A stretch of DNA of 36,591 nucleotides from positions 25,029-61,619 of the forward strand of contig JAQGDQ010001118.1 of NCBI GenBank assembly GCA_030141605.1. The letters run 5' to 3'. Source of the DNA: Tubiluchus corallicola. Lineage: Eukaryota > Animalia > Priapulida. A program made the translations under genes and the position numbers. Positions 8,330-31,258 of the stretch are shown in pieces; position 1 is the stretch's first letter; each line of letters begins with the position of its first letter. Under the pieces are notes generated by a model, which searched no databases, was not told the DNA's origin, and saw only the letters and a list, made by a program, of their open reading frames with translations.

Positions 8330-8738
8330 AATAATGACAGCACATTTTGTTGCGTGTTATTATAGTCTAAGGCGTAAAATGATAGCACATTTTGTAACAT
8401 GTTATTACAGCTCTAAGGCGTAAAATGACAGCGCATTTTGTAGTGTGTTATTATAGCTGTAAGGCGTAAAATGACAGCGCATTTTGTAGTGTGTTATTAT
8501 AGCTGTAAGGCATAAAATGACAGCGCATTTTGTAGTGTGTTATTATAGCTGTAAGGCATAAAATTATAGCACATTTGTAGTGTGTTATTACAGCTCTAAG
8601 GCCTAAAATGACAGCGCATTTTGTAGTGTGTTATTATAGCTGCAAGGCATAAAATTATAGCACATTTTGTAGTGTGTTATTATAGCTGTAAGGTGTAAAA
8701 CGGGAGCCCATTTGTAGTGTGTTATTGCAGCTCTAAGG
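8330..8738. repeat. 46-bp minisatellite, about 9 copies
   Basis: Unit taaaatgacagcgcattttgtagtgtgttattatagctgtaaggcg. Confidence 0.95.
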
Positions 8739-9415
8739 GTTTTGTGAAGTGCCTGTACTGATTTACTGTGTCTGTAAAATTGCTGTTCTAGTTCCCCCTT
8801 TTCAGAATAAAAAACAAAAATAGAAAACCCCCGATTGCCTTTTTGGGAAGGAAAGTCTTTCATCGTTAATTTTTTTATTTACCATGACCTGATAATTATT
8901 TTTCATTTTTAGGTACAAATTTCTATTACGTACATCCAGATTGAAGCGGAAAAAGCTGACAAATTTCCTTTGGTTTAAGTCACTGGAACATGTCGTACAA
9001 ACTGGGTGGTAGTCGTAAAGGTTTCCGCCACTGTTTTGGCGGTAGTTGATAAAAGTGTTTTTCGGAATATTTTATTTTATCGGATAGTGTTTAAATAAAG
9101 TTTAAAACATTACTTTAATTGTACTAGCTTTCTAGTTAATACAATAACATTATAATTACAGTGACATCCAGTGACAAAAATGGTACAGTTCAGAGTAACA
9201 TTTTTACACATACTTAGTAAAATAGACAAAGATACGACAGGACTTAAGGAAGGAATTAGAAGAGGAAAGAAAAAATGAGAAGAGCAGAAGGGAACAGAGG
9301 TGTTTTCAGTATAATTAGCCAATCTTTATAGGGGCTAACAAGTAAATATAGGGCGGAAAAATTTCCGTTACTTCATAACTGTGTTTTCTCTCCTGGTAAA
9401 CAGGTGTAGATATGA

Positions 9416-12319
9416 ATGAGCAATCAACTAAAAATGGACAGAGAGGACAGCGAAGCAGATGACAGTGACACAGAAGATGAATTCAATGAAAAGAAAGAGC
9501 AAGGATGGACTGCACTTCACGAATCTGTTTATGAGAACGACGTTAGCGCAGTGCGCCATCTACTGGCAGAAGGACATTCTGTTGGAGGACAATCTGGCAT
9601 TCTGTCAAAGCGAACACCTCTCATGATAGCATCAGCCAAGGGGTATATGAGTATAGTGCAGTTGTTATTGGAGCATGAAAATAAACTTTCAAGTTGTGAA
9701 GAGAGACAAATAAACTGCAAGGATTATGATGGACGAACACCCTTACACCATGCAGCACAGCACGACTGTGCAATTGCAGTATTTTTATTAAACCATGGAG
9801 CACCGCTAGATGTTAAAGATAATTATGGTTATTCGCCCCTTCATCTTGCGGTTGAAAGTGGACACGTCGACATTGTTCACTTGTTACTAAATCGTGGAGC
9901 TCAAGTTGACTGCGCAAACAACGAAGGCGAAACACCTCTACACACGGCTGCTGAAGAAGGGCACGTTGACGTAGTCGAGATGCTACTGAAACACGGTGCG
10001 GCAGCTGACAGACGAACAAAACGGCAAGGATTCACACCGCTTCATAAAGCAGCTGGCAAAGGATATGATAAAATAGTCGAGATACTACTGGACAGTGGAA
10101 TACAAATTGACTGTGCAGATGATGGTGGAAATACTCCTCTCCATGATGCAGCTGATTTTCAACACGCTGATATAGTCAAGATGTTACTAGATCGTGGAGC
10201 ACAAATAAATGTTAGAAATACCGGTGGAAGTACCGCGTTACACCGGGCAGCAATAATGAACAGCCGTTGCGATATTGTCAAGTTGTTATTAGACCGGAGC
10301 AGTGGAGCTTTAGTTGAATGCCGTGACGACGACGGCAACACGGCTTTGCATCGTACAGCAACTTACAGTCTTTGTCCTGACATAGCAAAGGTGCTATTAG
10401 ATTTTAAAGCAACAATTGGATGCAGAAACAAAGACGGAGAGACGCCTTTACATTTAGCGTGTGCGTACGATCGCACAGAGCTGATCAGGTTTCTTGTGGA
10501 TGCTGGAGCTGATGTAGATGCCATCAATGATAAAGGTCAAATGCCTCTTCATCTTGCAGTTAGTTATTCTCGTTCACTCGACATTATTAAACTTCTGTTG
10601 AGCAAAACGAAAACTATAAACCAGACTGATGATTGTGGTATGACACCTTTGCACTACATTTACAATCGACCTACAGTTATTTTAAACATTGATGTGGTAA
10701 GGGATTTCATTCGTCTTGGAGCCAACACAGACATAGTCAGTAATGATGGTCAGACCATTAAAGACCAGCTAGTCGAACGTGGAAATTTTGGCAAAGACAA
10801 TAACAAAGTCGTCCGGCGAGTTATAGGTCAGCTTTATCAACATCAGTATTTTAAAACCTGCAAAACATTCTCAGTAGCGTCAGCTGATCAAGATGCGTTC
10901 AAATTTGACTGCATTAATTCACTCCTCGGCGGCAGAGATAATCATATAACCAACCTGCTGCTTGTTGGTAACTTAGTAGAACCGGAAGAGTGTGATAAAA
11001 TTAAAAACTCTGTTGATTCACTGATAAGGAATGTTTGCAGTAGGATCAAAGGGTTAGAACCAGAGCTTGAAGGTGAAGCTATGTTGATTGGAAGCAGCTC
11101 ATGTGGGATAAAGTGCTGGTTACCGGACGAATTCGATTACTTCTTTGTGTTAACAACATTGAGTGAAAAAGTTACAATTGAAGCAAACAAGGACGGATAT
11201 GCGAAAGTAAGAGTGAACGATGATTTGTGCAAAAGTATGAAAAACTATGTTAGCGACGGATATCTTCAAATCCAAATAAAAGATATGTTTGCTGACGTGC
11301 TCTGCAGAGCCATGTCTGAAGCTTACCAGTCGACAATCAATCAAAGATCTCAATCTGACACATCGCTTTCAGACTTTGAACTTTTCCCAGTGCAGGATTC
11401 CATAATAGAGTGGAACAAGGTTTGCACCACATTCAACGTAATTGTTCAAGGCTCCTTCTACAAACAGCTGAAAATATCTGTCGATGTCTCGCCAGCTTTA
11501 AGGGTATCTGGTGGACCGCCAGGAGCAATATTGTCACGTCTTTCTCAAATATCGAATTTGGAATATCATGTAGTGCCAAAACCGGCGGAAGACGCTAGCA
11601 TTCAAAAACTTTCAGAGGAGTGGACGACAACTTCGACGATAAGCACCAGTTCTCCTGAAAGCAAAGTCATTCAACTGACTTCCCAGCGTAGCAAAGACGT
11701 AATGATAATACTGAAAACTTTGATGAAAGAGTACGTGTACAACGTCAAGTTGCCAAAAGCCGTTGCCAACTCGTGGATGGAAGAGCAAAAGAAGCAGCTG
11801 GAGGAGAAGAAAGATCGAGAGTCGGAATCGGGAATAGATATGCCCTATAAGTTGTTTTTAATGGCGAAACGTTACCCAGGCGATATGATAGACTCCTATA
11901 CCATAAAGACGGCATTCCTTCAAGAACTCTGGAGAAGCGGTGAGCCAAAGGACGAAGCAGAAATTGAAGAAAGAGTGCAGAGCATACTAGGGTACATCTC
12001 GTCATGCTGCAGGAATCGTTACATGCCTCATTACTTACTTAATGATTTTAACATATTAGAAAGCTTGAATGATAAATTAATCCAAAGTCAACCGCTGCCA
12101 TTCCTCATGGAAAAATGTGCGGCTGCTATTAAGCAGCATATAACCACTGATGGAGTGCCTACACACAAGTGCTTGATGAGCATAGATGCAGACGATGTGT
12201 ACGCAAACATGGAGCTAGCCCGACGCGAGCGAGACATATTTTATTGGAGTGAAACAATTGCTAACAAAAAAATATGGCAGGAGCTAGAGAAAGGTTGGCA
12301 AGAAGAGTTCAGTGAGTGA
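9416..12319 (+). CDS. Ankyrin-repeat / Mab21-cGAS-like nucleotidyltransferase (ANK-cGLR) fusion protein, 967 aa
   Basis: 12 ankyrin repeats (G-x-T-P/A-L-H motifs, aa about 30-440). Then LIGSSSCGIKCWLPDEFDY (G559-S560, E572, D574), ISVDVSPAL (D690), YHVVPK, STSSPESKVI, IDSYTIKTAFL and MPHYLLNDFNIL, matching cGAS/Mab21 motifs in order. In-frame stops just upstream fix the ATG; CAG acceptor at 9401-9403. Confidence 0.92.
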   Translation: MSNQLKMDREDSEADDSDTEDEFNEKKEQGWTALHESVYENDVSAVRHLLAEGHSVGGQSGILSKRTPLMIASAKGYMSIVQLLLEHENKLSSCEERQINCKDYDGRTPLHHAAQHDCAIAVFLLNHGAPLDVKDNYGYSPLHLAVESGHVDIVHLLLNRGAQVDCANNEGETPLHTAAEEGHVDVVEMLLKHGAAADRRTKRQGFTPLHKAAGKGYDKIVEILLDSGIQIDCADDGGNTPLHDAADFQHADIVKMLLDRGAQINVRNTGGSTALHRAAIMNSRCDIVKLLLDRSSGALVECRDDDGNTALHRTATYSLCPDIAKVLLDFKATIGCRNKDGETPLHLACAYDRTELIRFLVDAGADVDAINDKGQMPLHLAVSYSRSLDIIKLLLSKTKTINQTDDCGMTPLHYIYNRPTVILNIDVVRDFIRLGANTDIVSNDGQTIKDQLVERGNFGKDNNKVVRRVIGQLYQHQYFKTCKTFSVASADQDAFKFDCINSLLGGRDNHITNLLLVGNLVEPEECDKIKNSVDSLIRNVCSRIKGLEPELEGEAMLIGSSSCGIKCWLPDEFDYFFVLTTLSEKVTIEANKDGYAKVRVNDDLCKSMKNYVSDGYLQIQIKDMFADVLCRAMSEAYQSTINQRSQSDTSLSDFELFPVQDSIIEWNKVCTTFNVIVQGSFYKQLKISVDVSPALRVSGGPPGAILSRLSQISNLEYHVVPKPAEDASIQKLSEEWTTTSTISTSSPESKVIQLTSQRSKDVMIILKTLMKEYVYNVKLPKAVANSWMEEQKKQLEEKKDRESESGIDMPYKLFLMAKRYPGDMIDSYTIKTAFLQELWRSGEPKDEAEIEERVQSILGYISSCCRNRYMPHYLLNDFNILESLNDKLIQSQPLPFLMEKCAAAIKQHITTDGVPTHKCLMSIDADDVYANMELARRERDIFYWSETIANKKIWQELEKGWQEEFSE

Positions 12320-12476
12320 TCTAACAGTTGCAGGTCAAAGACTTTAATTGATATTGCTGCAATTTGACAGAACTGCAAATACAAATATATCAGAGCTTGT
12401 ATTACTCTTTGACTCAATTTACAAACTCGCTGAAGTTGCTAATGAAGCTGATTTCTTACAAGGATGTCGCCAGGTA

Positions 12477-14168
12477 AGACACTCTATTAATGCCTCCTTG
12501 AGTCTATTGAAAACCAGAGATTTATTTTGATGAGAGGTGCTCAACAACTCTGGAGAAGTCGTGAGAGTCATAGGAGATTCATATAGAGTCATACTATGAG
12601 AGTCATGATTTTGGCATTAATAGCTGTGAAGTGGTTACAAAGAGTCAGTTGTCCCAAAACATGCATATATCAAATAAATGCAGTATGACTGAATCTTAGA
12701 AACTAAATGGCAAGAGAGTCCACAGACACTATTACAGTTTTCCCTTTCAAGGAAGTAGTGTGATCAGTTGCGGCTCATAGCTAAAATTACCGAGGGTGCT
12801 GCTTCACACAGACACTATTACAGTTTTCCCTTTCAAGGAAGTAGTGTGATCAGTTGCGGCTCATAGCTGAAATTACCGAGGGTGCTGCTTCACACAGACA
12901 CTATTATAGTTCTCTCTTTCAAGGAAGTAGTGCGATCAGTTTCGGCTCATAGCTAAAATTACTGAGGGTGCTGCTTCACACAGACACTATTATAGTTCTC
13001 TCTTTCAAGGAAGTAGGGCGATCAGTGGCGCCTCATAGCTAAAATTACCGAAGGTGCTGCTTCACACAGACACTATTATAGTTCTCTCTTTCAAGGAAGT
13101 AGTGCGATCAGTTTCGGCTCATAGCTAAAATTACTGAGGGTGCTGCTTCACACAGACACTATTATAGTTCTCTCTTTCAAGGAAGTAGTGCGATCAGTTT
13201 CGGCTCATAGCTAAAATTACTGAGGGTGCTGCTTCACACAGACACTATTATAGTTTTCTCTTTCAAGGAAGTAGTGTGATCAGTGGCGCCTCGTAGCTAA
13301 AATTACCGGGGGTGCTGCTTCAGAAATTTTTTAGCCAAAGTTGTTTAATACTGTGTAAAACGAAACAAACATATCAAATTTTAATGTTGCAATTGTAATT
13401 TTAAACAAACCAATATGTGAAAGTATATACGTAAACTTGATAAAATCCTAATCACAAAAAAGTATTTTTTCCACACTAATAGCCTAAATTGTTGCAGTTC
13501 AATCTTGATCCATTCACAGTAAGCACGTGACAACTGACAACAAACTGTGTGAGCGAGAGTACTTTTTCTACCTGGGATCAGACATGTGCGCATGACCGCA
13601 AACGCACAACTGTTACAGCCAAACACCTCGTTGCTGGAGCGCAATGTGCTGAGCTATGAAGCAAACACCACTGCCCTCACATGCTCTGGTTTTGTACAGG
13701 TATAAGGAAAGAACTAAAGAAAAGACTCGTTATAGTTGTGAATATTATCAATAATACTGAGTGAAAATATGCAAAGACACTGGTAAAGACATTGATCACA
13801 CTTGTTGCTTTAGAATAAGTTGCAGTGTAACATAAAACTTTGTTACGTCAATACAAATAATAATTCCTCTCTATAAACACATACGTTTATAAGTGCAAAT
13901 GCACTGCAAATGTAATATTCTCTGTGGACTCTCTTACCATTTAGTATCTAAGATTCATTCATACTGCATTTATTTGATGTATAGATTTTTTGGGACAACT
14001 GACTCTTTGTAACCACTTCAGCTATTAATGCCAAAATCATGACTCTCATAGTACGACTCTATATGAGTCTCATATGACTTTCATGACTTCTCTAGAGTTG
14101 TTGAGCACCTCTCAGCAAAATAAATCTCTGCTTTTCGATAGACTCAAGGAGGCAGTGATAGAGTGTCT
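12477..14168. mobile_element. Non-autonomous long-TIR (foldback-like) DNA element with TA flanks
   Basis: About 260-bp inverted termini (12477-12736 vs 13911-14168), ends TA|AGACACTC...GAGTGTCT|TA; internal 86-bp tandem array; no transposase ORF. Confidence 0.8.
12721..13322. repeat. 86-bp minisatellite, 7 copies
   Basis: Units start at 12721, 12807, 12893 and so on (cacagacactatta...gggtgctgcttca). Confidence 0.95.
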
Positions 14169-14304
14169 TATAGACAGGTTTGTTGAAACTTAGTAGTCAT
14201 TCAACTAGTGCAATATCATTGGATCGCTGTTCTATAAGCTTTCGAACTATTTGTTTGGCACTATGATGATACAGCTTGCTCTGTATTGCTCTAAAATTAA
14301 GTTT

Positions 14305-14578
14305 GACCAGACGGTTTAGTCTAGTGGTAACGCGTCCACTTTCCGTCTGGGAGGTTGTGAGTTTGAACCAGCGGCCGGGTCATACCAAAGACTTTAAAAA
14401 TGGTACCCGCTGTTGCCCTGCCCGACGCGTAGTATTTAGGGTAAAAGTGGGGTAATAATAGTCTCTGTTGTGTAGTTGTAGGTTGTTATTTACAGTCGGC
14501 GATAATAGCTCTTTGAGCTAATGTTAATTGTTGACCCAAAAGCCGACTTTAAATAAAGATTATCATTATTATTATTAA
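14305..14578 (+). mobile_element. tRNA-derived SINE with a MetaSINE-like central domain and (ATT)n tail
   Basis: A box TAGTCTAGTGG, B box GAGTTTGAACC, core GGGTCATACCAAAGACTTTAAAAATGGTACC (resembles the Meta domain as I recall it), tail aataaagattatcattattattatt. Confidence 0.75.
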
Positions 14579-15010
14579 TAAGTTATATTTATTAATTACG
14601 TTGTTAAGATGAATACTCGGTAACTCATAGCTGTACGTTGTAATCATAGCACTTTTGAGAATTAATAAGTTATTTTTATTAATTATGTTGTTAAGATGAA
14701 TACTCGGTAACTCATGGCTGTATGTTGTAATCATAGCACTTTTGAGAATTAATAAGTTATTTTTATTAATTATGTTGTTAAGATGAATACTCGGTAACTC
14801 ATGGCTGTACGTTGTAATCATAGCACTTTTGAGAATTAATAAGTTATTTTTATTAATTATGTTGTTAAGATGAATACTCGGTAACTCATGGCTGTATGTT
14901 GTAATCATAGCACTTTTGAGAATTAATAAGTTATTTTTATTAATTATGTTGTTAAGATGAATACTCGGTAACTCATGGCTGTATGTTGTAATCATAGCAC
15001 TTTTGAGAAT
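14575..15010. repeat. 87-bp minisatellite, about 5 copies
   Basis: 29-aa periodic spurious ORF MITTYSHELPSIHL...; mirror array at 29649-30848. Confidence 0.95.
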
Positions 15011-15760
15011 TTAAATTATTTACATAATAAGAAACTTGTGTTAAATGATTTTATTGAAATGTGACATTGAGTGAAGCCTTGTAACAGTAAAGAAACTTCA
15101 CAGTTTCACAAATGTTTTAGATGTCGCTATCAGGGGCATATTAACTAATAGACTAACTAGAGTCTAGACTATAGCCTAGGCCCCCAAAGTTTGAGAATTA
15201 GAAATTTTTTTATTCTGCTCGGAAAATGTGTATACTTTCATTTTCATATTCATGTGAAGGGTGCATTTTATAACACACCATAGGCAGTTACTGAGGCCTG
15301 CTCCTATATAAGTGCCACATAACGAACAGGTGCAAGGCATTATACGACTAGCATGCACTATGCAAATACATGTAATTGATAATGACCAGGTTAATAGTGT
15401 TTCTAATACACCACAAGTAATTATTTAATGCACTCATTACATAAATAACACAATAGAGATATGCGGGACAGAACTATTGACCAAAGGCATTATAAAGTCT
15501 TGATATGTCCCTGGTCACAGAATTGCAAATGTTGTTCTCTTCTCTACATGGGATGTTGTTACATTTGAAATGAAATTTGATAACAGATCATAAATTCATA
15601 ATAGCAACATAATGTGGCCATTTAAAAACATAGCCGAGAGGATTGTGCTACTCTCAAATACTGCGCTACAGAGCACATCAATATTTCTGATCAACAAACC
15701 AATTACAATGTCCAAACCATCTGATCCTCCAATGACCATTCGCCTTACACAGCAACATTG

Positions 15761-15878
15761 GAGTAATCATTATTTCTATGTAGTAATCATTATTTCTATG
15801 GAGTAATCATTATTTCTATGTAGTAATCATTATTTCTATGGAGTAATCATTATTTCTATGTAGTAGTCATTATTTCAT
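15761..15878. repeat. 20-bp minisatellite, about 6 copies
   Basis: (g/t)agtaatcattatttctatg; only 2 copies at the mirror site near 28855-28895. Confidence 0.9.
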
Positions 15879-15915
15879 TGTTGCTACTCATTGGCTATAT
15901 GTGTGCTTGACAAAC

Positions 15916-16498
15916 CAAAACTGTCCATAAGTGGGCATAGTTAAAACAATGTTATGATGTTTCAAAGTACAATGCACCAAAAAGTTGGTCAAATGTCACC
16001 TTTTTCTCTTTTATAAAAACAAATGCTAAATATATTGGACTTTTACAATCTAGCATGAAATTATCAAGAAAATGTTCAAAAAACACTAAAAATCCAATTT
16101 TATAACTCCTTACTCAGTTTTCTGGCTAGAAACTAGTGCTGCAATTGTAAAAAACTTGTTTTTTTAAACTCCGCTAGAAGCTCATGGAAGCAGTCATTTT
16201 ATTTCGGGTTTTTAGTGTTGACAAACCCAGATCTTTGCCAGGAACAGCCATCTACTGGATATAACATTATTTAAATGTGTTCTTGCAAAGTCCGTAACAA
16301 CCAACATTCGTGCGGTTGCTAACTGTTTTATAGAAACACGACAAAAAACAATGGCTGACTTTAACAGCGATTTTCTCAAGATTATGTTTTTCTGTGCGCA
16401 GCCTGCACCTCAACTTCAATGTGGATTACCTCAGCTTAGAAATAAAATACGGCGATGACTTTGGTATCAAAATGATTGCCGACTTATGGACAATTTTG
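15916..16498 (+). mobile_element. MITE family A (TIR CAAAAyyGTCCATAAGT)
   Basis: Ends caaaactgtccataagt / acttatggacaattttg; related copies at 19202-19849, 24283-24929 and 28239-28819, and a fragment near 23200-23290. TSD not evident. Confidence 0.75.
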
Positions 16499-16515
16499 CT
16501 ATGAAGCACACATTT

Positions 16516-17034
16516 AGGGATGAGAATGACAAACTGCAAGAAACTCTGAAACAGGCCGGGGTTTTTGGGGCCACCTAGGCCCCATTGGGGTTGAGGGGCA
16601 AAGTCCCCTTGGAGCCAGCAACAAATTGCAATTTTGTGACCATAGAGAGCCTGTAAGTGGACTTAAAATATCAATTACCTTGTTTCATGCATAATATAAA
16701 ATACCCAACTATCAAGGATACGTGATACCTAATTGTCTCAAAAACGCCTAAGTACTGGCCGCTCCTATGCAAAAGTTTATAAAAACTGTCTGCAATTGAC
16801 TCAAATAACTCCACACAATTGATTCTATATTTTTATACATAGAGATCTACACGTGGTTACACTGATGTACATGATGTAAACAAAATGAAGGCCTGCCATC
16901 TAGCGGTCAGCTTGTGAAATAATGTACTGGGTCCGTAAAAATTTTCTCAACGAATTTACGCGATTTACAAAAATGGCACTACTGGTCTTCCAAAAACTCG
17001 GAACTCCGCGTATCCGCGGAAAACTCTCATCCCT
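16516..17034 (+). mobile_element. MITE family B
   Basis: TIR agggatgaga / tctcatccct; homologous to 4879-5379. Confidence 0.75.
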
Positions 17035-17244
17035 TTGTAAACAACAAAACAAATTACAATGTCAAAAACATCTGATCCATTCATCTTACTAAGCAACAAT
17101 GGAGTAGTCATTATTTCTATGTTACTACTCAATGGCTAGATGCTAATACTATGAAATAATAATAACCAGTGCTCCAAAAAAGCACCTGTTAAATGTGCTT
17201 GATAAAATCTCATCTTGAATCACTAGGCTGTGAATTTATACTTG

Positions 17245-19035
17245 TTAAGTATTTCTTGAGTGTTTTAACCTATGTTTCCTTAGGTAGCTTTGCCTAGCGA
17301 AATTAGCTCCACATAGACTGCATAAGTATGGCTTGATTCCAGTGTGAACCGTGATGTGTTCCTTTAAGTACCGTAGCTCGCTGAAGGCAACACCGCAATG
17401 CTGACACGAATGAGGTCGAGGCTGCCCCGTATGTTTCAATCTATGGCTCTTCAACGATGAAAGATTAGAGAACGAAGCTTCACACTGCGAACAAGAATAA
17501 GGTTTTTCTCCTGTGTGAGTCATTAAATGCCTTTTCAGTAGGTACGATCGAGTAAAACTTGCCCCGCACCACGCACACGTGTGCGGTCTCTCCCCGGTAT
17601 GACCCCTCAGATGTTGTTTTAAGCTACCGGGTTCGGTAAACGAAGCGTCGCACAGGTGACAGCCGTGCGGTCTTCCACCTTGGTGCCTCTTCAAGTGCCG
17701 CTGTAGTGTTCCTGACTGGGAAAAAGCTTTGCCACATAGCTCACATTTGTAAGGTTTTTCACCGCTGTGAGTCAACAGATGGCGCGTCAGCAAGCACTGC
17801 TGTCCAAAAGCCGCTCCGCAAAAATTGCAAAGATGAGGTTTGTCGCCCGAATGCGACAGCTGGTGTCGATTTAAGTTACCCGCACAGCTAAAAGTTGCAG
17901 CGCAGTGGGTGCAGATGTAAGGCTTCTGTTTTGAATGCGTTTCTATGTGCATTTTCAAGCTGCTCATATAATAACATGCATAGCCACACTGATCGCACTT
18001 GTAAAGCTTTTCAGTCTTGTGATTCATCAAATGTCTGCTTAAATTTCTGGAATTTTTGAAAGCGAGTTTGCAGTAGTCACACTTAAATGGCAGTGGTGCA
18101 GGGTGGACATTAGGTTTGGCACCATTTTTGTCCAGTGAAGACTCGCATTGACCACTGGCTTGACAGTTTTTGATTTTGCTAACATGAGAAGTAAGATGTT
18201 TGTTGTAATGACCCAACCTGGCAAACGAGGCAGTACACTGTGAACACTGAAAAGGTTTTTCATTCGAATGTTTAAGCAAATGCTGCTTCAAATGACTTGG
18301 CCATACGAATGCGGCGTCGCACTGAGTACATTTGTGAGGCTTTGTTCCAGAGTGTTCCATCAAATGCTTCTTCAAATAACTGCTGCTGGAAAAAGTGCCG
18401 CCGCACTTAACGCACGTGAATGGTTTCACGCCGGTATGTGTGAACAGATGGCGTTTCAAGTGACTCGGACTAGTAAAGGCACCTTCACAATGCTGACATT
18501 TATATGGCCGTCCCTGACTCGCAGATTTGATTAATGGCGTATCTCCTGCAGAGCTCAGAGATGCTTCACTTACTACAATGTGCTCTGAAGAATCGCGGCT
18601 GTTGTCACATTGTTCAACAGTGTCATTGTTTTTCACACATTGTTTAACAGTGTCATTGTTTTCCACAGAATAACAACCTACATTTGATTGGGAGTTAGTA
18701 ACATTTAAATCAAGCCTAGCACTTGCACTATTGGCAGCATCAGCAACTGTCGATTTTCTATTAATAAAGTTACCAAAACAAGACCCGTTTTTGGAATTGC
18801 CGTTTGCATCAGCACCATCTTTCGCTTCTGATTCAACTTTTACGACAACTGCATCTACATCAGTCTGAGCGACAATTTCGCTGGATGAACGAGGAAGTCT
18901 TTGTAGACCTTGTTCTTCTGACGTATCTGCTGGTTTCAGTATTTTAATGTCGTACATTTCGCTCCCGTGATGGGATGCTTCAACCGGCAAAGAAGGCGGC
19001 TCTGATTTTACTAATGGACTCTCATCTTCATCCAT
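17245..19035 (-). CDS. C2H2 zinc-finger protein, 14 fingers (4+10), left paralog, main exon
   Basis: CxxC...HxxxH fingers with TGEKP-like linkers; low-complexity N-terminus with psi-KxE motifs (VKSE, VKVE); splice acceptors at 19056-19058 (CAG) and 19037-19039 (TAG) on the - strand. Confidence 0.93.
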   Translation of the reverse strand: MDEDESPLVKSEPPSLPVEASHHGSEMYDIKILKPADTSEEQGLQRLPRSSSEIVAQTDVDAVVVKVESEAKDGADANGNSKNGSCFGNFINRKSTVADAANSASARLDLNVTNSQSNVGCYSVENNDTVKQCVKNNDTVEQCDNSRDSSEHIVVSEASLSSAGDTPLIKSASQGRPYKCQHCEGAFTSPSHLKRHLFTHTGVKPFTCVKCGGTFSSSSYLKKHLMEHSGTKPHKCTQCDAAFVWPSHLKQHLLKHSNEKPFQCSQCTASFARLGHYNKHLTSHVSKIKNCQASGQCESSLDKNGAKPNVHPAPLPFKCDYCKLAFKNSRNLSRHLMNHKTEKLYKCDQCGYACYYMSSLKMHIETHSKQKPYICTHCAATFSCAGNLNRHQLSHSGDKPHLCNFCGAAFGQQCLLTRHLLTHSGEKPYKCELCGKAFSQSGTLQRHLKRHQGGRPHGCHLCDASFTEPGSLKQHLRGHTGERPHTCAWCGASFTRSYLLKRHLMTHTGEKPYSCSQCEASFSNLSSLKSHRLKHTGQPRPHSCQHCGVAFSELRYLKEHITVHTGIKPYLCSLCGANFARQSYLRKHRLKHSRNT

Positions 19036-19201
19036 CCTAGAATGTATTGAAAACTCTGCAAAGCAAGAAATGTAGTTAACTACTTTAATTTAACTGGATG
19101 TCAGACACTGTAATTACCTGTTGCATTAAATTGTCAAAACAATTTAAAACAATGTTCACACTGGTGTCATTTGCTGATAATTAAATGTCAAATTAAAACA
19201 G

Positions 19202-19849
19202 CAAAATCGTCCATAAGTAGGCAGTTAAGCTTTTTATTATTCAAATATCCCGAATTTCCATTTCCTGGGGATCATTTTAATACCAAGCTCATTACTCTAT
19301 GTTATTTCTAAGCTGAGATAATCTACGTTGAAATTAAGGTGCAGGCTGTGCAGTGAAAAACTTAATGTTTAGAAAATTACCTTTATAGTTAGCCATTGTT
19401 TTCTGTCGCGTTTCTACAAAAACTTAGCAACCGTACAACTGTTGGTTGCCAAGGACTTTGAAAGAACGCGTTGAAGTCTGTTTAAATCCAGCAGATGGCT
19501 CTTCCAGACAAAGATCTGGGCTTGGCACCAGAAAAAACCCAAAGCAAAACGAACTACAAAAGCAAAATGACTGCTTCCAGGAGCTATTATCGGAGTGTGA
19601 ATATACAATTTTTCACAATTGCAGCACTAGTTTCTAGCCAGAAAAGTGGGTAGGGGGTTAAAAAATTAGATTTCTAGTATTTTTTAAACATTTTTTTTTG
19701 ATAATTTCATGCTAGAATATAAAAGCCCAATATATTTAGCATTTGGTTTTATAAAAAACAAAAAATTAACATTTGACCAAATTCTTTGTGCATTCTAGTT
19801 TGAAGCATCATAACATAGTTTTAACTATGCCGACTTATGGACGGTTTTG
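19202..19849 (-). mobile_element. MITE family A, intronic
   Basis: caaaatcgtccataagt ... acttatggacggttttg. Confidence 0.75.
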
Positions 19850-22239
19850 GTTTGCAAGCAACACAAATAAGCTTCTACAACTTAAAATCTTACTCTTATT
19901 ATGTATATTCATTTTATAACATATTGGCTGGGTTATAATTATCATTGTTTTGCTTTTTGTCTATCGTTTTGTTATATATATATAAATATATATAAATATA
20001 TTTAACTGCATTTTCACCACACGGTTATTTAAGATTATATAGAGAAATTTTTAACTAATGATCAGCCAGATTTAAACAGATCAATTTGCTCAGTAAAACA
20101 GTAATAACATAATTTATTCTCAGTTCTAGTCGTGAGTTAAATATTGCTTATATATATAGTGTCATCCCAGTATCGCTTTTATCTACTGAAGGATAGCTCT
20201 ATTGGTTGACCAATATTGTCTTTCACCAACCTATTTTGCAGTAAATAATAAAGAAATACGCTTATTTGTTTTATTTATATCATGAACGTGAAAATAAATT
20301 CACGTTTGAATTTAACTGAATTGAAATTGCAGCAAGTAACAGAAAGTTCGTCAAATATATTCTCTACAACATAGAATTGTTCTAATACAAAAATTCACAC
20401 GAACACATAACTTCCCTCGTACAGGTGCTAGCAGAAGTCATCTTGAACAATATCAAATCTGTATTATTGTAGACATTCAGTGTTCTCTTAAATATCAAAG
20501 TCCCAACATCTGGACTTTTATTCCCCAAGAAATTAAAAACAAATTAACTTATTAACATATCAATAACTCTTCGTAGATCTGTGATATGCTAAAAGTAGAG
20601 TAATTTTTGCTAAACTAACCGTAATTCGTAACTACTATTTTCCTTACTTCCACTGTACTTGAGGTAACTCTATTATTTCCAGCGGGTTTTTCTATTAAGT
20701 GTAAATTAAATTCACTAATAACGTCAACTTATGCTATTTAAGTTGATATTGCATTTAGTTTTTTTAAATACTAGGTAAAAGAAAATTAGCAATGCACAAT
20801 TCACACTGAATCCGGTTATTACAAGGCTTTAATTAATAAAATATTAATAAGATTATTTCTGTCGTACTGCACAAATCCTATGCATTATAGCTCAAATGTA
20901 TGTTACGAAGGCAAGGTACTCCTTATGTATAATTTATATTTATTATTTTTGTAATCGCTAATGCTCAATTTTTTGCTCATCCTAAAGAATTTCAAGATAC
21001 ATTTGCTTTCAACTTTTTCTTTCGTGACTCAACAAACATGTTTACCCACTTTTGCTAGCTACAAGCGAAAAAATTATTTTTTCTTTCTATAGTTCTAAGT
21101 CCTAACCATAATAATAATTTTGGATACATAAAATAATCAAAGTTTAACGTGATACATATTTTAAAGATTGAACAGAAACTAACACCTTTGTGTTATAAAT
21201 TAATCGACAATTGTCTTAAATGCAATCTGATAATTCTTAACTACTTGGTACTTGCCATTAATTACATACATATCTAATAATTCTGAGAGGGTGGCTGACC
21301 TCGATAACTTATAGTTCCTTCACCACTAATCAGTAATCACTTTTCTCATTGTCATATTGTCGTATGTTGTACAGAATTATAGATCACTTAGTTATGTATT
21401 TTGCTATTGTAAAAAAATGGTGATAAACTAGTAAACTTACTTACTTATATTCCTTTGTGTCTCAATGCTGTTATTACAATCAATTATTTTCGCCCTGACT
21501 GCTTTTATTGATGGTAATTTATATAGCATTGTTGTCAGTTATTTTAATTTTGGATAAGTATTTTAGAGTTAAAATATTTGGTTGTGCGCCTATAGCTGTG
21601 TCCCTTTTTGGAAAAACCAAGGCTACTAAAACGTAATATCTTTGTCGTGCAGAAATAACGTGAAAAGAGAAAAGTTTTTGGGTGCCACTGTTTCTTGAAA
21701 GTATCCCCATATTGCAAGACGCTGTACCAATTTTCACTAAGTTGATTTAGATTTTTCTAGATTTTACTTTCTTTTTCTCTCTTTTGAGTAATACGGTTCG
21801 GTATATATAACTGAATGTAGAATTCACGTACAGTTGAACATAACAGGCTTAATTTTTGTAAGAAGACCGAAAAGATTTGTGAAAGCGTTGTTGCAAATTT
21901 ACTTAAAAAGATATAATAATTATTTACTTAACTAATGTTCTCGTAAGCTGTGTTTGGACTGGAGTGAGAGAAAAACACGAGTTACTATCGATAAAAATTT
22001 TACCGTACTTTTTCTGATAGTAGCTGTGAGATCATTTACCGTTTACTGTGAATGCTCTCAGCACTTTTTATGGAGAACTCGCAGCAGTTCCGGCGCTATT
22101 ACACTTTCGCACCGCCTAGCTTTTTATAGGTTATTACTCGTTTTTAGGCTCGTAAGTCATCATTCTATTATTCTTACGTCATCAGTGAATGTTTCCGCTA
22201 ATCTAATTGTAATTTAATCTTATTTAGGCATAATTACGC

Positions 22240-22650: not shown

Positions 22651-24282
22651 CATGATTTTAATCTGATTTTAATCTGTACTTATAAAGCGTACGCAGCAAT
22701 AATATTATGGGAATATGGTGTATATTACGCCTGTTGGTCTGCTTTCTGGCCTGTAGGCGTGAAAACAACCAATAGGCCAGGAAAAGCTAGACGGTGCGAA
22801 AGTGTAATAGCGCCGCAGTTCCTTATTTCTGTAGAGACAAACAGCTGTCAAAATTCGAGATGCAAAATCTTTCACAAGGTTTGCTTGCAGTTACTGTTGG
22901 TTAATACTCAGCAGTTTTTCGGCAAGAAAACTCTAGTCAGAATACGCCATAAACTTTTTCTTGTCCAGGCCAACAATAAAAATACCTTTTCTGTTTTTCT
23001 ATTTTTTATCGCACACCCAGCTGGGAATTTTATAAGTTCGTATAAGTGATTCATATATGACTTATTTGACACTGTCATATAAAAGCATATTTATTTCTTT
23101 AATTACAATGTAAAACCCAATAATTATTATAACATGGTTCTTTAGGGGATGCAAGACTCGGCCATGTTTTACCATGGCTAACTTTCGGCTGGGGTTGCCA
23201 TCCGTAAGTTGGCAATTAAGCATTTCTAGTTATTCACATATCCCGAATCTTCATTTCATGAGGATCATTTTGATACCAAACTCATTGGCTTTTAACACAT
23301 TTGTGTGATTACACAAAGAATTCACAATTATTATTAAACAAAACAAACTTGTGAATTAAATAATTTTCTGGCGAATTTCGAATGTGTGCATTGCTGTAAA
23401 CATCGCCATGTTTCGCATCTTTGGCACGAATGAGCAAGAACTGCGTATGAGATACTAAAAGCGTTTTTGGCTACTAATGTTTGTTTAGCAATCTCTAATG
23501 ACCTCTTGACTGTACTCGTAACATCATTCGTCTTGTTCAACAAAAAAATGGCAGTTCTTCAAACTTAATATCTCTAATAATAATATAATTTCCACAAATA
23601 TAATTTACTTGTCTGTTAGTTAAAACTCTTAAAGTGAAAGAAATATATGACATGTATTGTCTTCATTTCATGTATCAGTATCATAATTGACTACTTCCAC
23701 CAGCTTTTCAGTCATACTTTAGTCCAGTTTCAAATCAACATGATCATTACACAAGATATTCAGTCGAAAGCTATGTACTCCCTCTTCCAAAAACAAATAT
23801 AACGAAACAGTCATCAAAATACAATGCTATTAAAATATGGTCATCAATTCCGCGTTAAATGAAAACTCTTAATCTTTATCAATTTAAAAAAGCATCAAAG
23901 AATTACCTACTGCAATGGTATAATTAACTCACAATTTTACTCATCCTGATCTTAAGTTACTAACAAAACTTATTTTGTTCTAATGTACGTTATAACTGAT
24001 GAAAATGTAATGTTAATTGTCAATTGTTTCACTTATCTGGAAGAGGACTCGAAATCTCAAGGCTCCTTCCTCCTCCTCACAGTAACTCGCATAGTTTATT
24101 TACGTTTTTTTCAATGTAATATCAACTTGTATGTATGTTTGAGTTGCTGTGGAATAAATTCATAATTCAAAAATAATTCAATAATCAAGTGATACAAAAT
24201 CAAAGGAAACAAGTTTTAGAGTAAGTTTATAATAAAATAAAATGATTTTAAGTTGTAGAAGCTTATATGTGTGCTTGCAAAC

Positions 24283-24929
24283 CAAAACCGTCCATAAGTC
24301 GGCATAGTTAAAACTATGTTATGATGCTTCAAACTAGAATGCACAAAGAATTTGGTCAAATGTTAATTTTTTGTTTTTTATAAAACCAAATGCTAAATAT
24401 ATTGGGCTTTTATATTCTAGCATGAAATTATCAAAAAAAATGTTTAAAAAATACTAGAAATCTAATTTTTTAACCCCCTACCCACTTTTCTGGCTAGAAA
24501 CTAGTGCTGCAATTGTGAAAAATTGTATATTCACACTCCGATAATAGCTCCTGGAAGCAGTCATTTTGCTTTTGTAGTTCGTTTTGCTTTGGGTTTTTTC
24601 TGGTGCCAAGCCCAGATCTTTGTCTGGAAGAGCCATCTGCTGGATTTAAACAGACTTCAACGCGTTCTTTCAAAGTCCTTGGCAACCAACATTTGTACGG
24701 TTGCTAAGTTTTTGTAGAAACGCGACAGAAAACAATGGCTAACTATAACAGCGATTTTCTAAACATTAAGTTTTTCACTGCACAGCCTGCACCTTAATTT
24801 CAACGTAGATTATCTCAGCTTAGAAATAACATAGAGTAATGAGCTTGGTATTAAAATGATCCCCAGGAAATGGAAATTCGGGATATTTGAATAATAAAAA
24901 GCTTAACTGCCTACTTATGGACGATTTTG
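24283..24929 (+). mobile_element. MITE family A, intronic (mirror of 19202-19849)
   Basis: Same TIRs; almost identical to its mirror copy. Confidence 0.75.
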
Positions 24930-25075
24930 CTGTTTTAATTTGACATTTAATTATCAGCAAATGACACCAGTGTGAACATTGTTTTAAATTGTTTTGACAA
25001 TTTAATGCAACAGGTAATTACAGTGTCTGACATCCAGTTAAATTAAAGTAGTTAACTACATTTCTTGCTTTGCAG

Positions 25076-26925
25076 AGTTTTCAATACATTCTAGGATGGA
25101 TGAAGATGAGAGTCCATTAGTAAAATCAGAGCCGCCTTCTTTGCCGGTTGAAGCATCCCATCACGGGAGCGAAACGTACGACATTAAAATACTGAAACCA
25201 GCAGATTCGTCAGAAGAACAAGGTCTACAAAGACTTCCTCGTTCATCCAGTGAAATTGTCTCTCAGACTGATGTAGATGCAGTTGTCGTAAAAGTTGAAT
25301 CAGAAGCGAAAGATGGTGCTGATGCAAACGGCAATTCCAAAAACGGGTCTTGTTTTGGTAACTTTATTAATAGAAAATCGACAGTTGCTGATGCTGCCAA
25401 TAGTGCAAGTTCTAGGCTTGATTTAAATGTTACTAACTCCCAATCAAATGTAGGTTGTTATTCTGTGGAAAACAATGACACTGTTAAACAATGTGTGAAA
25501 AACAATGACACTGTTAAACAATGTGTGAAAAACAATGACACTGTTGAACAATGTGACAACAGCCGCGATTCTTCAGACCATGTTGTAGTAAGTGAAGCAT
25601 CTCTGAGCTCTGCAGGAGATACGCCATTAATCAAATCTGCGAGTCAGGGACGGCCATATAAATGTCAGCATTGTGAAGGTGCCTTTACTAGTCCGAGTCA
25701 CTTGAAACGCCATCTGTTCACACATACCGGCGTGAAACCATTCACGTGCGTTAAGTGCGGCGGCACTTTTTCCAGCAGCAGTTATTTGAAGAAGCATTTG
25801 ATGGAACACTCTGGAACAAAGCCTCACAAATGTACTCAGTGCGACGCCGCATTCGTATGGCCAAGTCATTTGAAGCAGCATTTGCTTAAACATTCGAATG
25901 AAAAACCTTTTCAGTGTTCACAGTGTACGGCCTCTTTTGCCAGGTTGGGTCATTACAACAAACATCTTACCTCTCATGTTAGCAAAATCAAAAACTGTCA
26001 AGCCAGTGGTCAATGCGAGTCTACACTGGACAAAAATGGTGCCGAACCTAATGTCCACCCTGCACCACTGCCATTTAAGTGTGACTACTGCAAACTCGCT
26101 TTCAAAAATTCCAGAAATTTAAGCAGACATTTGATGAATCATAAGACTGAAAAGCTTTACAAGTGTGATCAGTGTGGCTATGCATGCTATTATATGAGCA
26201 GCTTGAAAATGCACATAGAAACGCATTCAAAACAGAAGCCTTACATCTGCACCCACTGCGCTGCAACTTTTAGCTGTGCGGGTAACTTAAATCGACACCA
26301 GTTGTCGCATTCGGGCGACAAACCTCATCTTTGCAATTTTTGCGGAGCGGCTTTTGGACAGCAGTGCTTGCTGACGCGCCATCTGTTGACTCACAGCGGT
26401 GAAAAACCTTACAAATGTGAGCTATGTGGCAAAGCTTTTTCCCAGTCAGGAACACTACAGCGGCACTTGAAGAGGCACCAAGGTGGAAGACCGCACGGCT
26501 GTCACCTGTGCGACGCTTCGTTTACGGAACCCGGTAGCTTAAAACAACATCTGAGGGGTCACACCGGGGAGAGACCGCACACGTGTGCATGGTGCGGGGC
26601 AAGTTTTACTCGATCGTACCTACTGAAAAGGCATTTAATGACTCACACGGGAGAAAAACCTTATTCTTGTTCGCAGTGTGAAGCTTCGTTCTCTAATCTT
26701 TCATCGTTGAAGAGCCATAGATTGAAACATACGGGGCACCCTCGGCCTCATTCGTGTCAACATTGCGGTGCTGCCTTCAGCGAGCTACGATACTTAAAGG
26801 AACACATCACGGTTCACACTGGAATCAAGCCATACTTATGCAGTCTATGTGGAGCTAATTTTGCTAGGCAAAGCTACTTAAGGAAACATAGGTTAAAACA
26901 CTCAAGAAATACTTTACAAGTATAA
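25076..26925 (+). CDS. C2H2 zinc-finger protein, 14 fingers (4+10), right paralog, main exon
   Basis: 609-aa ORF from 25096, in frame back to the acceptor at 25075/25076. Differs from the left paralog by about 10 substitutions, one extra NNDTVKQCVK repeat and a 3-aa C-terminal extension. Confidence 0.93.
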
Positions 26926-26993
26926 ATTCACAGCCTAGTGATTCAAAATGAGATTTTATCAAGCACATTTAACAGGTGCTTTCTTGGAGTACT

Positions 26994-27560
26994 AAGATAA
27001 GATAAGATAAGATAAGATAATATTTATTTTCATCGGTATGATATAAAACAGTACATATTTGTAAAACATGAGCTTAAAGCTCGTAAACCGATATCAAACA
27101 TAATGTATATGAGCGATAACATACATGGTAATAATATGTACTTCTTAAAATCTTTTGGATGTCACCAGAGGTATTGGTGCTAGAAAAATTTATAACTACA
27201 TGAAGACAGTAAAAATTTTAGGCAGTAACATTTTCAGAAATTTACACAAAAAGCTATGTAGGTCAATAAAAAATTTTCCAGCCAACATATTCAGCATTTA
27301 ATTACGACTTGACAAAATTGGGAAGTTCGCTGAATTTACAAATGGCACATTTACATGATACACCAGTCCATGAGTTAATTAGACGTTTAAATTCCCCAAG
27401 ATTTTCAGCCATTCGGAGACAGTTTGGTAATTCATTCCACAATGTGGCTCCATAATAGGAGAAACTTTTCTTGTCATTGTAACACCATCATATGTAGGGT
27501 GTTCTGCAATGTTCATTTTTCTGAGGAAGTAGCAAGAAACAAGTTTATTAAAAATAAAAA
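26994..27560 (-). mobile_element. 5'-truncated CR1-group LINE 3' fragment, right arm only
   Basis: Minus strand encodes KKSFSYYGATLWNELPNCLR...FKRLINSWTGVSCKCAIC (typical CR1/L2-group ORF2 C-terminus), then AATAAA and a (TCTTA)n tail; absent at the mirror site near 17170. Confidence 0.8.
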
Positions 27561-27702
27561 CTGGTTCTTATTTGACAGTATTAGCATCTAGCCAATGAGT
27601 AGTAACATAGAAATAATGATTACTCCATTGTTGCTTAGTAAGATGAATGCTCATTGGTGGATCAGATGTTTTTGACATCGTAATTTGTTTTGTTGTTTAC
27701 AA

Positions 27703-28221
27703 AGGGATGAGAATTTTTCGCGGATACGTGGAATTCCGAGTTTTTGGAAGACCAGTAGTGCCATTTTTGTAAATCGCGTAAATTCATTGAGAAAATTTTT
27801 ACGGACCCAGTACATTATTTCACTAGCTGACCGCTAGATGGCAGGCCGTCACTTTGTTTACATCACGTACATCGGTGTAGCCAAGTGTATATCTCTATGA
27901 ATAAAAATATAGAATCAATTGTGCAGAGTTATTTGAGTCAATTGCAGACAGTTTTTATATACTTTTGCATATGAGCGGCCAGTACTTAGGTGTTTTTGAA
28001 ACAATTAGGTATCATATATCCTTGATAGTTGGGTATTTTAAATTTTGCATGAAACAAGGTAATTGATATTTTAAGTCCACTTAGAGGTTCTCTATGGTAA
28101 CAAAATTGCAAGTTGTTGCTGGCTCCAAGGGGGATTTGCCCCTCAACCCCAATGGGGGCCTAGGTGGCCCAAAATCCCCGGCCTGTTTCAGAGTTTCTTG
28201 CAGTTTGTCATTCTCATCCCT
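27703..28221 (-). mobile_element. MITE family B (mirror of 16516-17034)
   Basis: agggatgaga ... tctcatccct. Confidence 0.75.
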
Positions 28222-28238
28222 AAATGTGTGCTTCATAG

Positions 28239-28819
28239 CAAAATTGTCCATAAGTCGGCAATCCTTTTTATACCAAAGTCATCGCCGTATTTTATTGCTA
28301 AGCTGAGATAATCCACATTGAAGTTGAGGTGCAGGTTGCACACAGAAAAACATAATCTTGAGAAAATCACTGTTAAAGTCAGCCACTGTTTTTGTCGTGT
28401 TTCTACAAAACACTTAACAACCGCACAAATGTTGGTTGCTATGGACTTTGCAAGAACACATTGGTGTTATGTTTAAATCCAGTAGATGGCTGTTCCTGGC
28501 AAAGATCTGGGTTTGTCAACACTAAAAACCCGAAATAAAATGACTGCTTCCATGAGCTTCTAGCGGAGTTGAAAAATTAAGTTTTTTACAATTGCAGCAC
28601 TAGTTTCTAACCAGAAAAATGGATACTCAGTTATAAAATTTGATTTCCCTATTTGTTGGACATTTTCTTGATAATTTGATGCTAGAATGTAAAAGTTCAA
28701 TATATTTAGCATTTGTTTTTATAAAAGACAAAAAGGTGACATTTGACCAACTTTTTGGTGCTTTCTACTTTGAAACATCATAACATTGTTTTAACTATGC
28801 CCACTTATGGACGGTTTTG
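28239..28819 (-). mobile_element. MITE family A (mirror of 15916-16498)
   Basis: caaaattgtccataagt ... acttatggacggttttg. Confidence 0.75.
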
Positions 28820-29648
28820 GTTTTTCAAGCACACATATGTGCCAATGAGTAGCAACATAGAAATAATGATTACTACATAGAAATAATGACTACTCCAATG
28901 CTGCTGTGTAAGGTGAATGGTCATTGGTGGATCAGATGTTTTTGACATCATAATTTGTTTGCTGTTTAGAAATATTGATGTGCTCTGTAGTGCACTATTT
29001 GAGAGTAGCAACATCCTCTCAGCTATGTTTTTAAATGGCCACATTATGTTGCTATTATGAATTTATGATCTGTTATCAAATTTCATTTCAAATGTAACAA
29101 CATCCCATGTAGAGAAGAGAACGACATTTGCAATTCTTTGACCAGTGGCCAGGGTCATATCAAGACTTTACAATGCCTTTGGTTGATAGTTCTGTCGCAC
29201 CAATCTCTACTGTGTTATTTATGTATGTGCATTAAATAATTACTTGTGGTGTATTAGAAACACTATTAACCTGGTCATTATTAATTACATGTATTTGCAT
29301 AGTGCTTGCTAATTGTATAATACCTTGCACCTGTTCGTTATGTGGCACTTATATAGGAGCAGGCCTCAGTAACTGCCTATGGTGTGTTATAAAATGCATC
29401 CTTCACGTGAATATGAAAATGAAAGTATACACATTTTCCGAGCAGAATAAATTTTTTTTCTAAAATGTGACATTCTCAAACTTTGGGGGCCTAGGCTATA
29501 GTCTAGACTCTAGTTAGTCCATTAGTTAATATGCCCCTGGTAGCGACATCTAAAGAAAATTGTGAAGTTTCTTTACTGTTACAAGGCTTCACTCAATGTC
29601 ACATTTTAATAAAATCATTTAATACAAGTTTCTTATGTAAATAATTTT

Positions 29649-30848
29649 AATTCTCAAAACTGCTATGATTACAACGTACAGCCATGAGTTACCGAGTATT
29701 CATCTTAACAACATAATTAATAAACATAACTTATTAATTCTCAAAAGTGCTATGATTACAACATACAGCCATGAGTTACCGAGTATTCATCTTAACATAA
29801 TTAATAAAAACAACTTATTAGTTCTCAAAAGTGGTATGATTACAACGTACAGCCATGAGTTACCGAGTATTCATCTTAACATAATTAATAAATATAACTT
29901 ATTAATTCTCAAAAGTGTTATGATTACAACGTACAGCCATGAGTTACCGAGTATTCATCTTAACAACATAATTAATAAACATAACTTATTAATTCTCAAA
30001 AGTGCCATGATTACAACGTACAGGCATGAGTTACCGAGTATTCATCTTAACAACATAATTAATAAACATAACTTATTAATTCTCAAAAGTGCTATGATTA
30101 CAACGTACAGCCATGAGTGACCGAGTATTCACCTTAACAACATAATTAATAAACATAACTTATTAATTCTCAAAAGTGCTATGATTACAACGTACAGCCA
30201 TGAGTTACCGAGTATTCACCTTAACAACATAATTAATAAACATAACTTATTAATTCTCAAAAGTGCTATGATTACAACGTACAGCCATGAGTTACCGAGT
30301 ATTCATCTTAACAACATAATTAACAAACATAACTTATTAATTCTCAAAAGTGCTATGATTACAACGTACAGCCATGAGTTACCGAGTATTCACCTTAACA
30401 ACATAATTAATAAACATAACTTATTAATTCTCAAAAGTGCTATGATTACAACGTACAGCCATGAGTTACCGAGTATTCACCTTAACAACATAATTAATAA
30501 ACATAACTTATTAATTCTCAAAAGTGCTATGATTACAATGTACAGCCATGAGTTACCGAGCATTCATCTTAACAACATGATAAAAACAACTTATTAGTTC
30601 TCAAAAGTGGTATGATTACAACGTACAGCCATGAGTTACCGAGTATTCATCTTAACATAATTAATAAATGTAACTTATTAATTCTCAAAAGTGTTATGAT
30701 TACAACGTACAGTCATACCGAGTATACATCTTAACAACATAATTAATAAACATAACTTATTAATTCTCGAAAGTGCTATGACTACAACGTACAGCCATGA
30801 GTTACCGAGTATTCATCTTAACAACACAATTAATAAACATAACTTAAT
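29649..30848. repeat. 87-bp (some 84-bp) minisatellite, about 14 copies
   Basis: Unit atgattacaacgtacagccatgagttaccgagtattcatcttaacaacataattaataaacataacttattaattctcaaaagtgct. Confidence 0.95.
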
Positions 30849-31122
30849 AATAATAATAATGATAATAATCTTTATTTAAAGTCGGCTTTTGGGTCAACAA
30901 TTAACATTAGCTCAAAGAGCTATTATCGCCGACTGTAAATAACAACCTACAACTACATAACAGAGACTATTATTACCCCACTTTTACCCTAAATACCACG
31001 CGTCAGGCAGGGCAACAGCAGGTACCATTTTTAAAGTCTTCGGTATGACCCGACCGCTGGTTCAAACTCACGACCTCCCAGACCGAAAGCAGACGCATTA
31101 CCACTAGACTAAACCGTCTGGT
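30846..31122 (-). mobile_element. tRNA-derived SINE (mirror of 14305-14578)
   Basis: Reverse complement with the same A/B boxes, core and tail. Confidence 0.75.
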
Positions 31123-31258
31123 CAAACTTAATTTTAGAGCAATACAGAGCAAGCTGTATCATCATAGTGCCAAACAAATAGTTCGAAAGCTTATAGAACA
31201 GCGATCCAATGATATTGCACTAGCTGAATGCTACTAAGTTTCAACAAACCTGTCTATA

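Follow-up and report, generated by a model that had tools for sequence, protein, structure and literature searches.

An ankyrin-repeat cGAS-like receptor with an intact catalytic triad in the priapulid Tubiluchus corallicola

In the census of cGAS-like receptors (cGLRs) by Li et al. 2023 (PMC9980059), cited throughout from its accessible text and tables, nucleic acid is the commonest known trigger, and the cGLR domains of sensors of double-stranded DNA (dsDNA) or double-stranded RNA (dsRNA) have an isoelectric point (pI) above 8.5. Pd-cGLR, with a pI of 5.0, is auto-active, and a non-nucleic-acid ligand was proposed for it. An added domain is lacking in 87% of cGLRs; ankyrin fusions are named in the text and figure legends (Fig 1C), and many are listed in Table S2. 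The known triggers being nucleic acids, those of the acidic enzymes and of the ankyrin fusions are left open by the authors. Here, an ankyrin-repeat-fused cGLR (ANK-cGLR), the protein P0001, is described from the priapulid Tubiluchus corallicola. Its gene lies in a stretch of 36,591 nucleotides (assembly GCA_030141605.1, contig JAQGDQ010001118.1, positions 25,029 to 61,619), referred to as the window, whose numbering is used for all coordinates.

P0001 is encoded by a single uninterrupted open reading frame (ORF) of 967 amino acids (9416..12319, + strand, as for all its features), free of stops and frameshifts, which joins ankyrin repeats and a cGLR domain in one chain. An acidic N-terminal tail of low model confidence (aa 1-25, 9416..9490, net charge -9) precedes 12 ankyrin repeats (aa 29-437, 9500..10726), identified by Pfam, by helix pairs in the model and by Foldseek matches to ankyrin solenoids. 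A capping helix pair follows (aa 448-478, 10757..10849), with a N..R...G.L pattern common to the clade defined below (G471 in at least 90%), and then the cGAS/Mab-21 nucleotidyltransferase domain (aa 511-918, 10946..12169; pI 5.3 on the scale of Li et al.). Within this domain, a charged helical insert of lower model confidence (aa 781-802, 11756..11821) is located between K767 and the SY..K motif. Extra C-terminal helices of low confidence (aa 925-966, 12188..12313) lie outside the cGAS-aligned part.

A sequence-only reading of this locus had proposed 12 ankyrin repeats followed by a cGAS/Mab21-type domain, naming a profile search and a structural comparison as checks, and both checks bore it out. 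In Pfam, Ank_2 covers the first half of P0001 (E 4.9e-91), and Mab-21 (residues 565-735, 25.7 bits) and Mab-21_C (824-889, 32.3 bits) exceed their curated cut-offs (24.1 bits for each); the same scan of P0001 found no effector domain (nuclease, kinase or other). The full-length AlphaFold2 model (77 sequences; mean predicted local distance difference test (pLDDT) score 88.9, predicted template modelling (pTM) score 0.83) contains 12 ankyrin helix pairs, which span residues 33-433, and one further pair at 448-478, and an ankyrin hidden Markov model (HMM) built in this analysis scores 11 of the 12 repeats. The pTM of the full chain suggests that repeats and domain are held in a defined mutual arrangement. 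The Foldseek matches listed for the full-length model were taken up by ankyrins. The domain model matched cGLR structures in Foldseek at E 9.5e-16. The domain-only model (9 sequences, pLDDT 84) is predicted to fold like cGAS (4k9b; Z 27.4, root-mean-square deviation 3.3, 321 residues) and like Cv-cGLR1 (8gjw; Z 27.9, deviation 2.9, 319 residues).

The G[S/G] loop and [E/D]h[E/D]...[E/D] triad that characterize cGLRs are present, as aligned to cGAS, in the activation-loop motif G559-S560 (11090..11095), in E572-F-D574, the first two catalytic acids (11129..11137), and in V-D690-V, with the third catalytic acid D690 at 11483..11485. The geometry of the triad is taken from the fold match and the alignments. 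Downstream lie K722, T741 (Arg in most relatives), S743, E748 and K767 (11579..11716), and the S827-Y828..K831 motif of the helical lobe (11894..11908); further motifs are VVPK at 719, STSSPE at 743, SYTIKT at 827, PHY at 871 and FNIL at 878. The five loop and triad residues stand at the positions given in the sequence-only reading, and all the downstream motifs that it named are in place; its identification of an ANK-cGLR with an intact triad is right by motifs, Pfam and fold match. The homology spans the nucleotidyltransferase core and the C-terminal helix bundle, as both Pfam domains indicate, and a clade profile matches cGAS in two stretches (E 3.9e-18, against 5.6e-7 for MAB21L1). Together with the intact triad and the template modelling (TM) scores by query (0.55 for cGAS, 0.47 for MAB21L1), this argues against a developmental protein of the Mab21L1/2 type. 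P0001 is not a cGAS of the vertebrate type either: there is no zinc ribbon, because Cys and His are absent from aa 749-766, between E748 and K767. From its sequence, the catalytic domain is likely to be enzymatically active.

Relatives were sought with a profile of three domain sequences, which retrieved 650 proteins at E<=0.001 from 1.84 billion representatives; the best 150 of the 650, including two profile members from outside the window, were examined. At least two ankyrin repeats were found in 102 of these best 150 by our own HMM, which scored none of 153 shuffled sequences. The sequence neighbourhood of P0001 is rich in ANK-cGLRs, a statement about this neighbourhood and not about their share of all cGLRs. 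The named wider relatives are one coral, one jellyfish and two clams. In two clam proteins (P0015 and P0017, about 2250-2290 aa), ankyrin repeats and cGLR domains apparently occur twice per chain, judging from ankyrin matches that flank the first GS motif and a best domain match that lies later. Word-index homology searches were insensitive (4 matches and 1 match). Pattern scans of viral contigs and prokaryote genomes revealed no relative, which does not prove absence, and a viral fold search gave only a distant match, in Hyperionvirus (8% identity, TM 0.42).

The domain alignment comprised 136 of 153 proteins, namely those of 280 residues or more in which the GS...E/DxE/D pattern occurs; the 17 excluded were fragments or lacked the pattern. 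This selection required the first two acids but not the third, whose position is D in 135 of the 136 domains. Eleven full-length proteins (P0001-P0003 and P0006-P0013), four of them from Priapulus caudatus, form one branch, with a FastTree support of 0.98 on the 136 rows and IQ-TREE values of at least 97.6/98 on a hand-chosen subset of 36 rows. At about 27-44% identity to P0001, all the other members retain ankyrins (Pfam Ank in 11 of 12 rows of the clade, the twelfth being a domain-only fragment), and the residues G, S, E, D, D, K722, K767, Y828 and K831 are found in 11/11 members, with E748 in 10/11. The number of repeats ranges from 2 to 15 where counted by HMM, and the cap and catalytic core are kept; this combination agrees with a conserved enzyme that is coupled to a variable module for binding. 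In the Atlas, the homologue P0006 matches, at 0.98, a cluster of Ank plus Mab-21-like proteins with 62 eukaryotic members. Several further matches there, with low shared-feature counts, are unnamed clusters that fuse ankyrin repeats to an MTPAP-like nucleotidyltransferase domain, a lead to a possible second architecture that combines ankyrins with a nucleotidyltransferase.

The signature of this clade is a WNKVC loop (aa 666-670, 11411..11425 in P0001), which adjoins the third aspartate and is present in 11/11 members and in 0/142 other proteins, other cGLRs having a G/S-P-A-type loop there. Two further positions have changed: the WRLS arginine is kept in one of the 11 members against 103 of 125 others, and the GSxxE acid in none against 122 of 125. 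In cGAS, the WRLS arginine reads guanine and affects the linkage. Read from sequence, the loop and the two changes point to altered specificity rather than to a loss of activity. The two changes do not imply a dead enzyme, because active enzymes in Table S3 of Li et al. also lack one or the other; Sp-cGLR1 has WCYS in place of WRLS, yet makes 3'3'-cUA (PMC9980059). The altered pocket loop and WRLS arginine could mean, though this step is weak, that the product differs from 2'3'-cGAMP. No discussion of this changed pocket was found in the literature searched.

The charge of the domain bears on the trigger. Our pI routine reproduces the value of 8.22 given by Li et al. for the P0006 domain; on this scale the P0001 domain has a pI of 5.19-5.31, far from the values above 8.5 of nucleic-acid-sensing cGLRs, with a net charge of -15. 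In the clade as a whole, the net charge of the first long helix of the domain lies between +1 and -4. For P0001, the acidic domain, the missing zinc ribbon and the near-neutral first long helix make DNA or RNA an unlikely trigger and a trigger of another kind probable. The non-nucleic-acid ligand put forward by the sequence-only reading thereby gains indirect support, from the acidity and the lack of a zinc ribbon.

P0001 is proposed to be a one-chain immune receptor, predicted to be off until a protein ligand binds its ankyrin repeats. This ligand would switch on the synthesis of cyclic dinucleotides for STING, with the repeats acting through the conserved capping helices on the first long helix of the domain. 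Beyond the anatomy, we infer this complete chain of events only tentatively. Its parts fare better: output through STING is reasonably probable, and the repeats would, on balance, be the sensing or gating part coupled to the enzyme through the cap. A wider version, which we consider doubtful, would make the WNKVC clade a distinct protein-sensing branch of cGLRs, in which a variable solenoid recognizes a protein of a pathogen, or a host protein that has been disturbed, and thereby switches on a remodelled active site that makes a messenger other than 2'3'-cGAMP.

Several observations weigh against the proposal. The literal motif of Li et al. (Q/T before GS, and 50-90 residues to the third acid) is unmatched in P0001, which has I558 and a spacer of 113 residues. 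This deviation is shared by XP_014668761.1, itself in their census (V before GS, 97 residues), and the spacer exceeds 90 residues in 124/125 of the other aligned matches, so that these details were evidently not used as a cut-off. Furthermore, acidity is not a property of the whole clade, in which the domain pI ranges from 5.19 to 8.51 and 5/11 members are above 7.5. From their screen of 140 cGLRs, Li et al. carried only 15 forward as active, and many appear inactive in vitro (PMC9980059). Finally, the accessible part of a study of shrimp Mab21 proteins describes signalling via IKK-epsilon, with cGAMP not detected (PMC12928593).

In a rival explanation, the acidic surface of the domain itself would sense a ligand that is cationic or otherwise not a nucleic acid, as proposed for Pd-cGLR, the repeats serving only to localize the enzyme or to recruit partners. 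A pI close to that of Pd-cGLR would fit, as would the repeat-less close relatives in the wider set and the 87% of cGLRs that manage without an added domain (PMC9980059). It is nevertheless unlikely, given that repeats and conserved cap are kept in all 11 full-length clade members and that the charge of the domain varies inside the clade. Ankyrin repeats are protein-binding modules in general, and P0001 might also be a signalling scaffold working through protein contacts (e.g. with a TBK1/IKK-epsilon kinase), for which no nucleotide product is needed. The three shrimp proteins, which bind IKK-epsilon, are a precedent, but they are reported to be without essential nucleotidyltransferase residues, and the accessible text never mentions ankyrin (PMC12928593). 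The retention of triad and lysines in 11/11 clade members, despite their divergence, makes a scaffold quite unlikely for P0001. An ordinary dsRNA or dsDNA sensor, tuned or localized by its repeats, would have the commonest known cGLR trigger (PMC9980059), and in five clade members the domain pI reaches 7.6-8.5; the charge, zinc-ribbon and helix data given above for P0001 make this improbable. The idea, raised by the sequence-only reading, that the repeats bind the nucleotide product of the enzyme draws on RNase L, whose ankyrins bind 2-5A, and on the union of a nucleotidyltransferase and repeats in one chain. It found no support and is highly improbable: the groove-facing positions, picked by a DARPin-like scheme, hold 22 D/E against 12 K/R in 11 repeats and vary from one clade member to another, and there is no nuclease, kinase or other effector domain, so that P0001 does not resemble a nucleotide-binding ankyrin receptor of the RNase L kind.

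The gene might, finally, be a silent copy, an artefact of the assembly or a sequence recently acquired from a symbiont or virus, as its intronless coding region and a 1-nt deletion in one contig could suggest. Contigs from three sequencing runs (X1 and X2, from one sample that is possibly the source of the window, and X3, of unrecorded kind) span most of the ORF; their differences are few, and those listed include no stop. The missing nucleotide, from a C run at 9836 in one X2 contig, is not missing in X1 or X3, in which the frame is intact. The GC content at third codon positions (GC3) is 0.39, against 0.41 in a neighbouring zinc-finger gene, the scans of viral contigs and prokaryote genomes gave no relative, and the named relatives are animals. 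A silent or foreign copy is therefore very improbable, and P0001 is real, correctly identified and probably functional.

The frame has no upstream extension in the genomic sequence, because an in-frame TGA lies immediately 5' of the ATG, and opposite-strand frames across the ORF are open for at most 97 aa. The start context is more favourable at an alternative start, M7 (codon at 9434), and an out-of-frame ORF of 16 codons begins at 9412, overlapping the start of the gene. As far as the DNA can show, the coding part is indeed one exon; a pyrimidine tract and CAG 12 nt 5' of the ATG (window 9380-9462) form a possible splice acceptor at 9403. The first AATAAA 3' of the stop (12673..12678, +) is a putative polyadenylation signal. 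X3 pieces run from 9160 to 12686, stopping 8 nt beyond it, with no splice joint listed. Their contig depth is up to 26-31 (some 2-10), and bins over unique intergenic DNA and over the zinc-finger gene nearby give about 1.5-12, a measure that cannot rank genes. As X3 extends over intergenic DNA too, and was itself identified with this gene, no inference on expression is drawn. The X1 and X2 contigs both break at 11106-11153, the stretch encoding the GS loop to E572/D574, and the single X6 piece (RNA by guess), 164 nt long at 10963-11124, shows 18 differences; the explanation may be a close paralog or a population that has diverged. Allele differences amount to seven non-synonymous and three synonymous in the ankyrin half, and one changed codon and two synonymous in the domain, counts too few to show selection (p 0.47).

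The rest of the window is animal DNA rich in repeats, in which zinc-finger genes and a LINE element are found. A large inverted duplication (13207-19889 and 24244-32489, about 86-99% identity, around a 4.4-kb spacer) carries two C2H2 zinc-finger genes (17245-19089, -; 25042-26925, +) that are nearly identical and divergently oriented. The LINE ORF, open for 1059 aa (32606-35785, -) with endonuclease and reverse transcriptase, is located where the mirror arm ends, so that a mirrored ANK-cGLR copy could lie just past the window. A tandem C2H2 zinc-finger array occupies 1218-2647 (-; 84-bp units, 16.7 copies, 89% matches). Minisatellites at 8333-8738 (46 bp) and 12721-13322 (86 bp) flank the ANK-cGLR gene, and others occur at 14574-15011 (87 bp), 29647-30851 (87 bp) and 31500-31925 (109 bp).

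The ANK-cGLR architecture is not new: it has been catalogued, it is common among the best matches, and the clade of P0001 is itself in the census. As the sequence-only reading had stated, ankyrin fusions have been noted without functional characterization; the census lists them, and no functional study of an ANK-cGLR was found in the literature searched, which covered few subscription papers. In the accessible tables, WNKVC occurs in two rows of Table S1, both from Priapulus, which is listed with 2 cGLR and 5 STING genes, and both of its census cGLRs belong by motif to the WNKVC clade. Tables S1, S2 and S4 contain XP_014668761.1 (P0006), which is absent from the screen of Table S3, and the other three Priapulus accessions of the clade were not found in Tables S1-S5 (PMC9980059). 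Five ankyrin or clade motifs were absent from Table S3 as available, and a sixth matched a species name only; an ANK-cGLR domain may have been screened there without its repeats.

P0001 is otherwise like the roughly 100 ANK-cGLRs among the matches listed, and it is the changed pocket of its clade that sets it apart. Its acidity, its coding region without introns, its confident model and its retained catalytic residues make it well suited as a test case. Were a protein the trigger, cGAS-type immunity would reach further than the sensing of DNA and RNA; if the doubtful wider version were true, the WNKVC clade would be a sensor similar to NLRs, with an enzymatic reaction as its output.

Among the known systems, RNase L is a receptor with ankyrin repeats and kinase-like and nuclease domains in a nucleotide-messenger pathway; in contrast to this receptor, P0001 would be a synthase, and it has no effector domain. 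The shrimp proteins LvMab21-1/2/3 are likewise invertebrate Mab-21 proteins not shown to sense nucleic acid, but they differ in being reported without essential catalytic residues and in acting via IKK-epsilon, and ankyrin is not mentioned in the accessible text (PMC12928593). Pd-cGLR, an acidic and auto-active coral cGLR that makes 2'3'-cGAMP, shares with P0001 a pI of about 5, and a visual comparison also shows a similar strand ahead of the third aspartate, together with a long spacer; it has neither ankyrin repeats nor the WNKVC loop, and its activity has been demonstrated, whereas that of P0001 is only predicted. Cv-cGLR1 (8gjw), Sp-cGLR1 (8gjy) and vertebrate cGAS, at 14-20% identity, have the fold, GS loop, triad, VPK, S..E, K and SY..K in common with P0001. 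Unlike P0001, they are basic and activated by nucleic acid, and their characterized constructs are without ankyrins; cGAS has a zinc ribbon that P0001 lacks, and P0001 adds the WNKVC loop, the helical insert and the C-terminal helices. The nearest proteins are XP_014668761.1 (P0006) and XP_014666123.1 of Priapulus caudatus, neither of which is in the available screen table of Li et al. (PMC9980059). P0006 aligns with P0001 at 27% identity over 735 columns (E 9e-67) and differs in its repeats (6 against 12 by our own HMM), domain pI (8.1-8.2 against 5.2-5.3) and spacer to the third acid (97 against 113). N-terminal ankyrins, the cap, the cGLR domain, an intact triad and the WNKVC loop are common to P0001 and both Priapulus proteins.

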